NCBI GenBank assembly: GCA_964406325.1
Contig: CAYORE010000018.1
Location: 1-37,461 of the forward strand
Length of the DNA: 37,461 nucleotides
From: an uncultured Bdellovibrionales bacterium
GTDB taxonomy: Bacteria; Patescibacteriota; Minisyncoccia; Moranbacterales; DUUL01
Direction: 5' to 3'
This document shows positions 6,206 to 19,301 of this stretch, one piece after another. Position numbers and translations under genes: made by a program. The notes beneath the pieces were generated by a model that searched no databases, was not told the DNA's origin, and saw only the letters and a program-made list of their open reading frames with translations. Each line of letters opens with the position of its first letter. Within the stretch, counting starts at the first letter, position 1.

Positions 6206-6760
6206 TTGAAAAATAATTTATTAATTCGGAATATGGATATTTTGGAAATCGTAACAAGTGTAAATGAATTTTTAAACCGGTCTGCTATTTTTCAAGGTAT
6301 AAAATTTGTTTTGGCAATTTATTTAATTGTATTGTTTTTGGATATTGCGTTAATGATTTTTGTTATGGTAAAAAAACGAGGGTACTGGTATGATTTTTCT
6401 TTCGGGCGAACTATTCCCAAAATAATCGGCACTATGGATAAGCGATGGAAAGAAGTGGCGGAAATGATAAAAAGAGGAAATCCAAATGATTATAAATCGG
6501 CGGTGGTGGAAGCGGGAGAAATGGTTTACGAAATTCTGAAAAAAATAGGGTATCCCGGAGAAACTTTAACTGAACAATTGGACAAAATGGTTGGTTATCA
6601 AATCTCAAACTTGGAGAAAGTAAGAAAAGCCACTGCTTTGAGAGATGCCATTTTAGCCGATGCCAACTATGAAATTTCCGAGGAAGAAGCCAAAGAAGCG
6701 GTAATTGAATTTGGAGAAGTTTTGAAAGAAATGGAGGCAATTCATAATATTTTAATTTAG
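6206..6760 (+). CDS. Hypothetical membrane-anchored protein (one N-terminal TM, helical C-terminal domain)
   Basis: 184-aa ORF with a TTG start 12 nt downstream of GGAGG. An in-frame alternative ATG lies at 6233. TM segment IKFVLAIYLIVLFLDIALMIFVMV. No recognisable catalytic motif. Confidence 0.6.
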   Translation: MKNNLLIRNMDILEIVTSVNEFLNRSAIFQGIKFVLAIYLIVLFLDIALMIFVMVKKRGYWYDFSFGRTIPKIIGTMDKRWKEVAEMIKRGNPNDYKSAVVEAGEMVYEILKKIGYPGETLTEQLDKMVGYQISNLEKVRKATALRDAILADANYEISEEEAKEAVIEFGEVLKEMEAIHNILI

Positions 6761-17409: not shown

Positions 17410-17482
17410 CGGGGCATGGTGTCAACGGCTAGCACGCACGGTTTGGGACCGTGTAGACTGGGTTCGAATCCCAGTGCCCCGA
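17410..17482 (+). tRNA. tRNA-Pro (anticodon UGG)
   Basis: Manual cloverleaf: acceptor CGGGGCA/TGCCCCG, anticodon arm CACGG-TTTGGGA-CCGTG, T arm CTGGG-TTCGAAT-CCCAG, discriminator A. CCA is not encoded. Confidence 0.9.
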
Positions 17483-17695
17483 CAGGAAGATCACCCGCGC
17501 GGTGATTTTTTATTTTAATTTTTATTTTCTGGCAGAAGGGTACAGTGTGATAGAAAGCACTGGGATTCGAAGGGCGTTAAGAAAAATTCGAGCGAAAAGC
17601 GAGGATTTTTTAGCCCCGGCCCGAAGGGGAATCCCAGTGCCCCGACAGGAAGATCACCCGCGCGGTGATTTTTTTTATTTTAATTTTTATTTTTT
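17466..17695 (+). repeat. Direct repeat of the tRNA-Pro T-loop-to-3'-end plus terminator (17466-17528 and 17629-17695) bracketing a 100-nt GC-rich insert
   Basis: The two copies are identical except for T-run lengths, with an offset of 163 bp. The insert contains a T-arm-like ctgggattcgaa. gcactggga (17557-17565) is complementary to tcccagtgc (17632-17640). Confidence 0.9.
17490..17511 (+). terminator. Intrinsic terminator of tRNA-Pro
   Basis: Stem atcacc/ggtgat (6 bp) with loop cgcgc, followed by a 6-T run. An identical hairpin recurs at 17653-17676. Confidence 0.6.
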
Positions 17696-17784: not shown

Positions 17785-17854
17785 CACTACCATATTACGA
17801 AATATGGTAGTGGTAAACAAAAATAGCATACTACTATATTTCGTAATATGGTAG
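17785..17854. repeat. Two related palindromes (28 nt and 24 nt) spaced 44 bp centre to centre
   Basis: cactaccatatt-acga-aatatggtagtg (17785-17812) has perfect 12-bp arms. ctactatatt-tcgt-aatatggtag (17831-17854) has 10-bp arms with one T:G position. The central tetranucleotides are reverse complements of each other. Confidence 0.85.
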
Positions 17855-18169
17855 CGTTGATAACATCAGTAATGCCGTAGTAATTGTAGTAGTAGTGATG
17901 GCGTAATTAGTATTAGTATTAGTGAACTTATCTAGGGTTTTTAAAAATAATCAGAATTAATGGTAAAATAAACTAAAAATTTAAACTCCGAAAGAGTATG
18001 CTAAACAGATAGTTTATTAACAGGTTAATTTTACAATTTTGTTTACAGAAAAGTGTTAAAATGTTAAATAACTTTTTATAAAAGTTATTATTGACTATGC
18101 TAATATTTTAGTACCTTTCTGGGGATAATCTTAGATGAGTTAAGTATTAGTATTAGTGGGGAGGAAATA

Positions 18170-18413
18170 TTTTTAATATTTTCCACCAAAAAACCGCCTA
18201 CATCGGTAGCCGGTTTTTTTAATTGTGGTTTGGTGGACGCTAAGGGACTCGCCCTAACGGGCCGGCCCCTCCCCGTGCAAAGCACAAGGGTCCGGGCTTC
18301 GAGTCCCAAGTCCAAAAGCCAAGCAGTTGGCTTTTTAATATTTTCCACCAAAAAACCGCCTACATCGGTAGCCGGTTTTTTTAATTGTTGTTTGGTGGAC
18401 GCTAAGGGACTCG
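18170..18413 (-). repeat. Direct repeat of the tRNA-Val T-loop-to-CCA end plus terminator (18332-18413 and 18170-18251) bracketing an 80-nt GC-rich insert
   Basis: The two 82-bp copies differ at one position, with an offset of 162 bp. The insert carries an 8-bp arm (18300-18307) complementary to 18244-18251. Confidence 0.9.
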
Positions 18414-18470
18414 AACCCCTGACCCCTTCGGTGTAAACGAAGTGCTCTAAACCAACTGAGCTAAGCGTCC
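18393..18470 (-). tRNA. tRNA-Val (anticodon UAC), CCA encoded
   Basis: The reverse complement folds as GGACGCT-TA-GCTC-AGTTGGTTTA-GAGC-A-CTTCG-TTTACAC-CGAAG-GGGTC-AGGGG-TTCGAGT-CCCTT-AGCGTCC-A-CCA. Confidence 0.9.
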
Positions 18471-18703: not shown

Positions 18704-18719
18704 CGTCAATCCAAAATAT

Positions 18720-19301
18720 CTATTTTTTTTCCTTCTCTTCTTTATTCTCTTCTTTATTCTCTTCTTTATTCTCTTCTTTCTCTTCAGCTTTTTTCTTACC
18801 ACCTTGTTTATCTTCGTTACTTTTATTCTCTGCCTTTTCAGTTATTGTTTCTTTTTTGGCGTTGTCTGATACTTTGGTGCTTGTATCATCCTTCTTGTTG
18901 CCATCTTTATCATCAGTATTCTTTTGTTGATCGTTGATTAACTCTTCCTCCTCAACTTCAATAGCTTTCATTTTAGCGGCCTTACCAAATCGTTCCCGCA
19001 TATAGTACAACTTTGATCGACGCACCTTGCTGTGACGAAGGATTTCAATTTTTTGAACAACCGGACTAAAAATTGGGAAAATCATTTCAATACCGACTCC
19101 GCCGGACACACGACGAACGGTGATTGTCGGTGAAGAACTTTGTTTTCCTTTAACGGCAATTACCAAACCCTTGAAAACCTGAATTCTTTCTTTTTCTCCT
19201 TCTTTAATTTTTCGGTGTACTCTAACAATATCACCAACCTTAACTTTCGGCAAGTTGTTTTTCTGAAGTGATTTGTTGAAATCTACAATTTGTTGATCCA
19301 T
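18720..19301 (-). CDS. rplS: 50S ribosomal protein L19 with an acidic/lysine-rich C-terminal extension of about 75 aa
   Basis: The first 115 aa or so are canonical L19 (LPKVKVGDIVRVH...ERIQVFKGLVIAVKG...RRSKLYYMRER). The tail ends in (EENK)n, encoded by a 12-bp tandem repeat at 18735-18782. Confidence 0.9.
   Translation of the reverse strand: MDQQIVDFNKSLQKNNLPKVKVGDIVRVHRKIKEGEKERIQVFKGLVIAVKGKQSSSPTITVRRVSGGVGIEMIFPIFSPVVQKIEILRHSKVRRSKLYYMRERFGKAAKMKAIEVEEEELINDQQKNTDDKDGNKKDDTSTKVSDNAKKETITEKAENKSNEDKQGGKKKAEEKEENKEENKEENKEEKEKK

Follow-up and report, generated by a model that had tools for sequence, protein, structure and literature searches.

The duplicated tail of a tRNA-Val gene in an uncultured bacterium flanks one copy of an apparently undescribed family of small, GC-rich, hairpin-forming elements, which we read as insertion elements that land at one position in the T-loop of tRNA genes, copy the tRNA's 3' end so that the gene stays intact, and occur in many uncultured bacteria. 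The window analyzed here is a 37,461-nt stretch (GenBank assembly GCA_964406325.1, contig CAYORE010000018.1, positions 1 to 37,461). ARAGORN and Rfam place tRNA-Val(tac) at 18393-18470 on the minus strand, and a repeat search gave an 82-nt direct repeat at 18170-18251 and 18332-18413, 99% identical (one A/C mismatch) and spaced by 162 nt. The tRNA 3' end (TCCCTTAGCGTCCACCA) occurs exactly twice in the window, compared to 0.03 matches expected by chance. The 80-nt spacer is 65% G+C, compared to 36% for the window and 27% for the neighboring intergenic DNA. A sister module of the same layout lies at tRNA-Pro. The features of the two modules are as follows.

18393..18470, minus strand: tRNA-Val(UAC) gene with encoded CCA (Rfam tRNA, 68.5 bits).
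18332..18413, minus strand: proximal copy of the 82-bp repeat, holding tRNA positions 56/57-76, the trailer, the terminator hairpin (arms 18350-18363 and 18368-18381), the T-run and 18 further nt.
18314..18335, minus strand: P0, a predicted 9-bp hairpin with a 4-nt loop (aaaagccaa-ctgc-ttggctttt), the first conserved helix of the element, whose first 4 nt overlap the end of the repeat.
18252..18331, minus strand: the 80-nt insert, the element proper, comprising P0, a linker, the 5' arm, GAA, P2, CG and P3.
18298..18307, minus strand: 5' arm gggactc plus gaa, the exact reverse complement of tRNA positions 54-63 (ttcgagtccc); in the predicted fold its first 7 nt form P1 with 18244-18250.
18265..18297, minus strand: P2, a variable predicted hairpin (gccc...gggc around ccuugugc-uuu-gcacgggg, with two G-U pairs).
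18251..18262, minus strand: P3, a short predicted GC hairpin (gccc-guua-gggc) abutting G57 of the distal tRNA end.
18244..18307, minus strand: core three-way junction (P1-GAA-P2-CG-P3-P1), matched by the family covariance model (43.4 bits, E = 4e-9).
18170..18251, minus strand: distal copy of the 82-bp repeat, with a second tRNA-Val 3' end including CCA (18231-18251) and a second terminator (arms 18188-18201 and 18206-18219).
17410..17483, plus strand: tRNA-Pro(UGG) gene (ARAGORN), host of the sister module.
17466..17528, plus strand: proximal repeat of the Pro module, from G57 to 17 nt past the terminator T-run.
17529..17628, plus strand: Pro-module insert; the covariance model matches its core at 17562-17635 (62.6 bits), and its 5' arm gcactgggattc (17557-17568) pairs with 17629-17640.
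17629..17693, plus strand: distal repeat of the Pro module, with two extra T's in the T-run.

The observation made in the initial annotation, of a repeated T-loop-to-CCA-plus-terminator block around a GC-rich insert, is thus confirmed. The predicted fold contains the helix it described between gggactc(g) at 18300-18307 and (c)gagtccc at 18244-18251, and the hairpin gccaa-ctgc-ttggc followed by T's is present. Two details needed correction. The distal 3' tail, described as unpaired, is not fully so in the predicted fold, where GGAC at 18310-18313 pairs with GUCC of the tail. The hairpin read as a second hairpin plus T-run is a conserved part of the element (P0) rather than an intrinsic terminator: in relatives it is followed by CG(U/G)N instead of T's, it has a fixed 9-bp stem and 4-nt loop at a fixed distance from P1, its stem covaries, and in the window the terminator scan flags it only on the opposite strand.

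Support also comes from other assemblies (L numbers denote the sequences compared). A JGI contig, L002, 99.8% identical, contains the junction between the proximal repeat and the insert of the Pro module, although it breaks inside that insert. Related species, in independent ENA, JGI and NCBI assemblies, carry homologous elements at the same two tRNAs. No second assembly of this exact strain covers the Val module (the FtsK protein is not on record, and contig L148 ends before tRNA-Val), and the window's own reads were not examined. Contig L001, 99.7-99.9% identical to the window, precisely lacks both modules; its single copies carry the variant bases of the distal copies.

To ask whether the insert is unique, we scanned genomes with a pattern built from the two window copies. 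This pattern hit 18 sites in 15 genome contigs, all of them 43-235 nt 3' of a tRNA gene (Ser, Lys, Pro, Leu or initiator Met) and on its strand, in Saccharibacteria, Moraniibacteriota, Paceibacteria, Peptococcaceae and another Firmicutes MAG. Sixteen more copies came from metagenomes. A metagenome pattern without the T-stem part was too loose: it matched at least 120 loci, and about 105 of the 120 returned were GC-rich noise. In total, patterns and the covariance model gave 36 copies (32 distinct sequences) across Patescibacteria and Firmicutes MAGs, with tRNA-Ser the dominant host. The layout is constant and runs from P0, where present, through a 5' arm complementary to tRNA positions 54-63 or further, GAA, the variable hairpin P2, CGG and the GC hairpin P3, to a second copy of the tRNA 3' end starting at G57. 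Two pattern scans of viral contigs gave zero hits or spurious GC-rich hits. BLAST of the window region against phages returned only tRNA-level matches, and BLAST of two family members against plasmids and phages returned none. Literature searches, including one for the exact core sequence, found no description of the element.

All 31 unique cores fold into the same predicted three-way junction, and the tRNA-sense strand folds better than the antisense strand in 25 of 31, with G-U pairs favoring the sense strand. Several lines of evidence indicate that structure is selected. In the alignment, 92% of pair cells are paired, compared to 82.8% in shuffles, and there are 51 double-change cells, compared to 17.9; no shuffle in 500 reached these values. 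P0 (seen in 17 of 31 cores) and P2 stems differ completely in sequence between copies but stay paired. Covariation of the 8-bp helix in homologous loci had been put forward in advance as a check, and it was found: P1, the most conserved feature of the family, covaries with T-loop position 59 (U:A 26, C:G 4 and G:C 1). P3 is conserved as CCC-loop-GGG in all family members. One caveat here is that conservation of P1 and P3 was partly imposed by the search patterns. The arm always includes GAA, the complement of T54-C56, even in divergent relatives that were not found with a pattern. Rfam searches at gathering score and at E up to 10 in the window, and at E up to 1 in five other loci, returned only tRNAs and chance hits, and thus no match to known small self-cleaving ribozymes or other curated families.

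The flanking repeats are informative as to their origin. In L157, one of the related MAGs, the same A-rich spacer plus the same element sits at tRNA-Val and at tRNA-Pro, each flanked on both sides by that tRNA's own 3' end, and one Firmicutes genome has the same subfamily at tRNA-Lys and tRNA-Ser. The right end of the duplication varies: it lies near N73 in L018, L053, L083 and L007, 3-8 nt past the T-run in L003, L006 and L146, and 17-18 nt past it in the window, so that duplications range from 17 to 82 bp. Units occur with or without the spacer, the acceptor complement and P0. Signs of turnover were also seen. Tandem arrays exist, with truncated older units lying distal to the tRNA, and a copy in one relative, L149, has 15 changes in 106, all GC-to-AT, and has lost its fold. 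The precise absence of both window modules from L001 also fits turnover, although this "empty" allele could result from an assembly collapse.

We then looked for an enzyme. In a search for a shared neighboring protein, by all-against-all BLAST of flank ORFs together with Pfam and PHROGs on about 60 ORFs, no integrase, transposase, HUH enzyme or reverse transcriptase was found in the 37-kb window or next to the other copies examined. Whole genomes and transcriptomes were outside the scope of this search.

We favor, with moderate confidence, the interpretation that the insert is one copy of a family of small (about 65-130 nt), GC-rich, non-autonomous insertion elements that target tRNA genes. 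Our data directly show that the junction is always between C56 and G57; that P3, at the element's 3' end, abuts a copy of the tRNA 3' part starting at G57 while a second copy stays joined to the tRNA body, leaving the gene intact; that the two copies form a target-site duplication with a fixed left end and a variable right end, which can stop just after the discriminator base or run past the terminator, although the evidence on this point is mixed in some arrays (see below); and that a 5' arm complementary to tRNA positions 54 to about 63-70 pairs with the displaced tRNA end and closes the three-way junction, usually preceded by P0. The mechanism, by contrast, is inferred. The element would move through a folded single strand of the tRNA-sense polarity, most simply an RNA co-transcribed with the tRNA, which would recognize the T-loop region by base pairing, its 3' GAAUCCC tail with the bottom strand and its 5' arm including GAA with TTCGAnTCC, and would be copied into a staggered break by an enzyme supplied in trans, resembling target-primed synthesis as with SINEs. 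The enzyme has not been identified, and no RNA or excised intermediate has been observed. Both window elements lie behind strong terminators with no promoter-like site, such that an RNA intermediate would need read-through transcription, and the window duplications end further beyond the T-run than a terminated transcript would reach. A more far-reaching version, possible but doubtful, is that a structured RNA (or single-stranded DNA) made as part of a tRNA transcript acts as a bacterial counterpart of a SINE, or more generally as a guide-directed insertion element, that it finds the T-loop of tRNA genes by pairing with both strands (the 5' arm with TTCGAnTCC on the top strand) and is copied into a staggered break between C56 and G57 by an enzyme supplied in trans, and that repeated insertion builds cassette-like arrays behind tRNA genes in Patescibacteria and Firmicutes.

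The interpretations offered in the initial annotation, an att scar or a tRNA-like minihelix, are partly supported. A direct repeat that starts in the T-loop and regenerates the tRNA 3' end is indeed the signature of insertion into a tRNA gene, and such repeats are the classic trace of prophages and islands (PMC9897764; PMC1762012); tRNA-Val and tRNA-Pro also lie in a gene-poor intergenic region. However, that the insert is the inert remnant of a decayed prophage or island, with all but 80 nt next to attR deleted, is very unlikely and largely refuted by the comparative data. Two tRNAs in the window and more than 30 loci elsewhere carry homologous inserts of similar size with a covarying structure and an identical junction, which random deletion remnants would not share, and there are no phage or island genes nearby. 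The insert is instead a complete copy of a conserved, structured mini-element found at many tRNA genes in several phyla. A related alternative, which we consider unlikely, is that the modules are miniature integrase-type cassettes, in which a small circle of tRNA 3' end, short cargo or terminator, and structured element recombines site-specifically with the T-loop of the tRNA gene through a tyrosine recombinase encoded elsewhere, as phages and islands do and as integron cassettes do through a folded attC, bringing its own tRNA end and pushing the original one downstream. The identity block runs from the T-loop to the tRNA end, as in T-loop attB sites such as that of Ms6 (PMC1762012). In L005 and L018, two units share a trailer while the last copy has a different one that keeps the CCA; in L013, L014 and L016, trailers are shuffled; and L012 and L076 hold arrays of at least five different, unrelated mini-units, one with a 151-aa ORF, each ending at the 13-nt repeat GAATCCCACATCC. 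These arrays fit serial cassette-like insertion as well as or better than target duplication, and the distal-copy variants in L001 are as expected for a crossover at the T-loop. Nevertheless, a circle carrying a Val end would break tRNA-Pro, contrary to what is seen in L157; no integrase was found in the window or in any flank examined; no copy was found on viral contigs, phages or plasmids in the searches above; and the window duplicates the native trailer exactly. Overall, the evidence on whether the proximal repeat is brought by the element is mixed and leans against it.

It is also unlikely that the element plus the distal tRNA end is a host-useful tRNA-like small RNA, an acceptor/T-stem minihelix capped by a three-way junction, processed by RNase P and the 3' tRNA-maturation enzymes, given a CCA end and perhaps aminoacylated or used as a decoy, with the duplicated tail and terminator supplying its 3' end. 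P1 and, in many copies, an acceptor-like helix form with the distal tRNA end, leaving an N73(CCA) tail. P0 sits where a long variable arm would emerge, and in many Ser copies no terminator separates the tRNA from the element, so the two must be co-transcribed, while a terminator follows the distal end. As to a stacked helix of about 12 bp ending in single-stranded N73-CCA, the window Val copy forms only P1 (7-8 bp) plus a 4-bp GGAC:GUCC contact, whereas L008, L015, L017, L018, L012 and L076 form 14-15 bp or more and many other copies are imperfect or truncated, an outcome that points neither way. Expression, processing by RNase P or the CCA-adding enzyme, and aminoacylation were not measured here. 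Against this reading, the acceptor complement is imperfect or missing in many copies; the distal end is often truncated right after GAATCCC(AC), as in L003 Val, L009, L012, L076 and L087, and carries a 3-nt deletion in L003 and L146; a three-way junction replaces the T-loop; no tRNA or tRNA-like Rfam hit covers the element at E up to 10, nor does ARAGORN call it; the element is missing from the 99.8% identical contig L001 and varies in copy number; and in the window it lies behind terminators. Helix-disrupting substitutions had been named beforehand as counting against a functional module, and the L149 copy has them. Finally, an assembly artefact is very unlikely. Although L001 lacks both modules and L002 breaks inside the Pro insert, the insert has no k-mer overlap with its flanks that could create a false join, and the architecture recurs in independent assemblies. 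The "empty" L001 allele is more likely a de Bruijn-graph loop collapse in a short-read assembly.

Other identities were considered and dropped. The junction lengths (3, 2-3 and 0 nt) and sequence do not fit a hammerhead or other known ribozyme; there is no domain V or internal-guide-like core, as a group II or group I intron remnant would have; the upstream tRNA is complete, unlike a split or intron-containing tRNA; the region is non-coding and has no reverse transcriptase, unlike a DGR template/variable repeat pair; and covariation at position 59 fits only an inverted, not a direct, copy of the T-stem 5' strand.

We compared the element with known systems. Integrase-bearing elements with a T-loop crossover, such as mycobacteriophage Ms6 (26-bp attP core spanning the T-arm to the 3' end; PMC1762012), likewise insert in a tRNA gene with a repeat that starts in the T-loop and regenerates the 3' end, so that the tRNA stays functional, and partial tRNA ends accumulate downstream. 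Here, however, the insert is an 80-nt, conserved, folded element with an arm complementary to the target and no recombinase in or near it, and in relatives the repeats derive from the target and vary in length. Integron attC sites and the folded single-stranded attP of CTX phage share an imperfect inverted repeat around a variable, sometimes branched tip, strand-specific folding, conservation of structure rather than sequence, and arrays of small units in one orientation next to a fixed entry site (here in L012, L076, L155 and L157), with newer units nearest that site and some units lacking an ORF. But no IntI or attI was found upstream of the tRNAs examined, there is no R/L box consensus (GTTRRRY), the junction sequence is GGG|GAATCCC and the arm GGGAYTCGAA, the junction lies at the three-way junction (the tip, or inner end, of the folded arm) rather than at the open end, the entry site is a tRNA T-loop, and the repeats are target duplications in at least some cases.

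Eukaryotic SINEs and other non-autonomous retroelements mobilized by target-primed reverse transcription are also small, structured, linked to tRNAs and non-autonomous, ride on tRNA-type transcription, and have a precise 3' junction, a variable 5' extent and target-site duplications of variable length, the last three of which were observed here. Nothing of this kind is known in bacteria, no reverse transcriptase or endonuclease partner was identified in the sequence available, the target is a single defined phosphodiester bond inside a tRNA gene, and an RNA intermediate was not assayed. MITEs and the palindrome-associated elements (PATEs) of the IS200/IS605 family are short, non-coding, hairpin-rich, multi-copy elements mobilized in trans, and in IS200/IS605 a short guide next to a hairpin pairs with the target tetranucleotide, for which the analogue would be GAA pairing with TTC. 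Here there is neither the fixed short target duplication of DDE-type MITEs nor the complete lack of duplication of IS200/IS605, no TnpA was found, and the terminal "inverted repeats" are the target tRNA's own sequence and change with the host tRNA. Viral tRNA-like structures, the tmRNA tRNA-like domain, the bacterial Y RNA YrlA and mascRNA resemble the element in a helix built on a genuine acceptor/T-stem 3' strand with an N73(CCA) tail, within a tRNA transcription unit, but differ in the absence here of a T-loop, the inconsistent acceptor pairing, the lack of an Rfam match, and the decay and strain-to-strain variation of copies.

tRNA genes are the classic landing sites for large mobile elements, which bring an integrase. 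In this case, a folded element with no gene of its own lands at one defined bond, keeps the tRNA intact, adapts its pairing arm to the host tRNA, and has spread across very distant phyla, including the reduced genomes of Patescibacteria. If it moves through an RNA or folded single strand recognized by base pairing, it would be a new type of bacterial non-autonomous element and would point to an unidentified enzyme that cuts or primes at the T-loop. On the practical side, the extra tRNA 3' ends and GC-rich hairpins will confuse tRNA annotation and break short-read assemblies, with contigs ending or collapsing at these modules, and they could also mark strain-level variation.

The duplication of the tRNA-Val tail described in the initial annotation is confirmed. 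ARAGORN and Rfam each place tRNA-Val(UAC) on the minus strand, and a repeat search recovers an 82-nt block that recurs with one mismatch at an offset of 162 nt. This block runs from inside the T-loop through the encoded CCA, the trailer, a terminator hairpin and its T-run, to 18 nt beyond, and the tRNA 3' end occurs exactly twice in the window. The 80 nt between the copies are 65% G+C, compared to 36% for the window and 27% for the intergenic region. The same layout is seen at tRNA-Pro(UGG), which lies 0.9 kb away on the other strand and has an insert of 100 nt. The relevant features are as follows.

18393-18470, minus strand: tRNA-Val(UAC)
18332-18413: 82-nt block that begins inside the T-loop of tRNA-Val
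18170-18251: second copy of the 82-nt block
18301-18307: gggactc, which pairs with gagtccc at 18244-18250
17466-17528 and 17629-17693: the two repeats of the tRNA-Pro module

The window is chromosomal DNA of a Patescibacteria (Moranbacteria-like) organism. It encodes GyrA, L19, FtsK, ValRS and RNase J, and the nearest named homologues are Patescibacteria proteins.

To compare the two inserts, we folded each on the tRNA-sense strand. Both are predicted to form the same three-way junction, consisting of a 5' arm that pairs with the start of the distal repeat (P1), GAA, a variable hairpin (P2), CG or CGG, and a short GC hairpin (P3) that abuts the distal repeat. They also share the octamer CCGGCCCG, which occurs nowhere else in the window.

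We then asked whether similar inserts exist in other genomes. A pattern built from the window copies and two copies in a related contig (L003) hit 18 sites in 15 contigs of species-representative genomes. Seventeen of these lie 43-235 nt 3' of an ARAGORN-called tRNA on the same strand, and the eighteenth follows a tRNA cut by the contig end. The host tRNAs are Ser (most), Lys, Pro, Leu and initiator Met, to which the window and its relatives add Val. The host organisms are Saccharibacteria, Moraniibacteriota, Paceibacteria and other Patescibacteria, Peptococcaceae and another Firmicutes MAG, and one MAG labelled Gammaproteobacteria. A looser pattern applied to metagenomes returned mostly GC-rich noise but also at least 16 more true copies, nearly all at tRNA-Ser. 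All 31 unique cores fold alike, and the sense strand is more stable than the antisense strand in 25 of 31, by 3.1 kcal/mol on average, because of G-U pairs.

A covariance model built from 26 copies finds exactly two copies in the window, at 17562-17635 (plus strand) and 18244-18307 (minus strand), and none in L001, a near-identical contig. On the model alignment, 92% of pair cells are paired compared to 82.8% in shuffles, and there are 51 double-change cells compared to 17.9, with none of 500 shuffles reaching these values. One caveat here is that P1 and P3 were partly fixed by the search patterns; P2 was not, nor was a further hairpin, P0 (described below), and both covary strongly. No Rfam family matches the element, and no phage, plasmid or viral contig searched carries it. 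A literature search found no paper describing it.

Many copies show a fuller anatomy downstream of the tRNA. A spacer, often without a terminator, is followed by an imperfect complement of the acceptor 3' strand, and then by P0, a 9-bp hairpin with a 4-nt loop and the form GCnnGnnAA-nnnn-TTnnCnnGC, whose stem covaries. Next come GU plus one nucleotide, the P1 5' arm, GAA, P2, CGG and P3, and finally the tRNA 3' end from G57. What the initial annotation took for a second hairpin plus T-run is P0. The 5' arm is the reverse complement of tRNA positions 54 to about 63-70. Covariation of the P1 helix in homologous loci had been put forward at the outset as a way to evaluate it, and the arm indeed follows T-loop position 59, with U:A in 26 copies, C:G in 4 and G:C in 1. 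This excludes the alternative that the arm is a direct copy of the T-stem. The arm always includes GAA, the complement of T54-C56, although the repeat starts only at G57, and this also holds in divergent relatives with other cores that were found by adjacency rather than by pattern.

The left end of the repeat is always G57 (C56/G57 in Val-type copies, because P3 ends in C), whereas the right end varies. It lies at about N73 in contigs L018, L053, L083 and L007, where the distal copy keeps the CCA and the proximal copy lacks it; 3-8 nt past the T-run in L003, L006 and L146; and 17-18 nt past the T-run in the window. In two related species (L003, 205-225; L146, 655-672), the distal copy of the tRNA-Pro 3' end carries the same 3-nt deletion (AGT) relative to window positions 17629-17647, while the 5' arm of the element still matches the intact tRNA. 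The window and L149, a close relative of L003, have the intact version. Just after each Val terminator T-run of the window lies TGGTGGA, which is complementary to the last 7 nt of the tRNA (TCCACCA) and extends the terminator into a 13-nt pairing with the tRNA 3' end (18182-18194 with 18387-18399, and 18344-18356). L001 has a G>A change inside this segment, and it is not conserved in L003.

The decisive case for the origin of the repeats is a group of NCBI MAGs that share the gene order of the window, L19 - tRNA-Leu - tRNA-Val ... tRNA-Pro - MBL-fold hydrolase. In one of these, L157, the same A-rich spacer and the same element lie behind tRNA-Val and behind tRNA-Pro, sharing the P2 sequence GGGAtttttttGCTaaaaaaaTCCC, and each is flanked on both sides by that tRNA's own 3' end. 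So the mobile unit is spacer plus element, and the tRNA ends are copied from the target; a circle carrying a Val end could not give this result without destroying tRNA-Pro. Likewise, one Firmicutes genome has one subfamily at tRNA-Lys and tRNA-Ser, with a compensating change in P1.

There are several indications of turnover. Tandem doubles (A-B-A-B-A) occur in L005, L008 and L018. In L155 and L157, a complete unit lies next to the tRNA and a truncated or decayed older unit lies distal to it. L012 and L076 hold arrays of at least five small units, each ending at GAATCCCACATCC, one of which contains a 151-aa ORF. These arrays include a second family of small elements of the same design (L076, 7700-9480; L012, 6730-6900; also L010, 4050-4200, and L085, downstream of its element), with a 5' arm complementary to the tRNA 3' end plus GAA, and often P0, but with a different core ending ...GAGAGTGACC|GAATCCC. 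Together with 40-nt mini-units, this second family forms arrays behind tRNA-Ser in Paceibacteria and Moraniibacteriota. Directly upstream of an element array in L012, ARAGORN calls a tRNA-Ser with the unusual anticodon ACT (6505-6592), while a normal tRNA-Ser(GCT) lies 1.6 kb upstream; this may be a duplicated or hybrid tRNA created by the insertions.

The Pro elements of L003 and L149 are 100% identical, yet the Val element of L149 (4779-4895, minus strand) differs from that of L003 (279-385) at 15 of 106 positions, all GC-to-AT (9 C>T, 5 G>A, 1 G>T). P1 and the base of P2 are broken, and the predicted fold is lost (-29 compared to -50 kcal/mol). This indicates either old-copy decay under AT pressure or local deamination-type hypermutation. 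The two trailer copies of the Pro module change in concert between L003 and L149. Contig L001, 99.7-99.9% identical to the window over 15.8 kb, lacks both modules exactly, and its single copies carry the distal-copy variants. This suggests recent gain or loss, although a short-read de Bruijn assembler can also skip an A-B-A loop, and hence we regard the L001 result as suggestive only. Contigs of near-identical strains (L002 and L148, from JGI 3300039288) end exactly at or near these modules, with L002 starting at the 5' arm of the Pro element; the modules evidently break short-read assemblies.

Collectively, the analysis establishes site-specific insertion at C56|G57, a target-derived duplication of variable length, a conserved sense-strand fold, an arm matched to the target, and non-autonomy, in that no integrase, transposase or reverse transcriptase was found in the window or in the flanks examined. 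The mechanism, by contrast, is inferred. The combination of one fixed and one variable cut, units variably shortened at the 5' end, co-transcription with the tRNA in many copies, and G-U pairs is most simply explained by copying of a folded single strand, most likely the tRNA trailer RNA, into a staggered break. In this view, the 3' GAAUCCC tail would pair with the bottom strand as a primer site, much as SINEs are copied. However, no enzyme has been identified, the elements in the window lie behind terminators with no promoter-like site, the window duplications run past the terminator, and some arrays fit a cassette or recombinase model better. We consider the general reading, a non-autonomous T-loop-targeting element with target duplication, somewhat more likely than not, whereas an RNA- or guide-directed mechanism is no more than a tentative possibility.

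The initial annotation proposed an att scar or a tRNA-like minihelix, and these interpretations are supported only in part. The duplication does resemble T-loop attB/attP systems such as that of phage Ms6 (PMC1762012), as well as the tRNA fragments left by integrated elements (PMC9897764), but no accompanying recombinase was found in the window or in the flanks examined, and the evidence on whether the element brings its own tRNA end, although mixed, leans against it. The folded, structure-conserved site and the arrays recall integron attC cassettes, yet the boxes, the integrase and the crossover position do not match. With regard to tRNA mimicry, there is a helix on a true acceptor/T 3' strand, but there is no T-loop, the acceptor pairing is inconsistent, and copies decay. 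Hence, we classify the element among tRNA-targeting insertion elements, as a variant distinct from each of these families.

Additional features of the window lie near the two modules. A perfect 16-nt direct repeat (AGTATTAGTATTAGTG, at 17909-17924 and 18143-18158) brackets a 234-bp, very AT-rich stretch immediately beyond the distal Val repeat; it may be the trace of another insertion or duplication, and is also present in L001. Between the Pro and Val modules (17785-17854), two nearly identical 28-nt perfect hairpins (cactaccatatt-acga-aatatggtagtg) lie in inverted orientation 18 nt apart. These are scored as a terminator-like site and as chance miRNA-like hits, with no known function. Finally, the ribosomal protein L19 gene (18720-19301, minus strand) has a C-terminal extension built from 12-bp tandem repeats in its 3' part (18714-18840). 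A 97% identical homologue (P0121) is 8 residues shorter, so the repeat number varies between strains.
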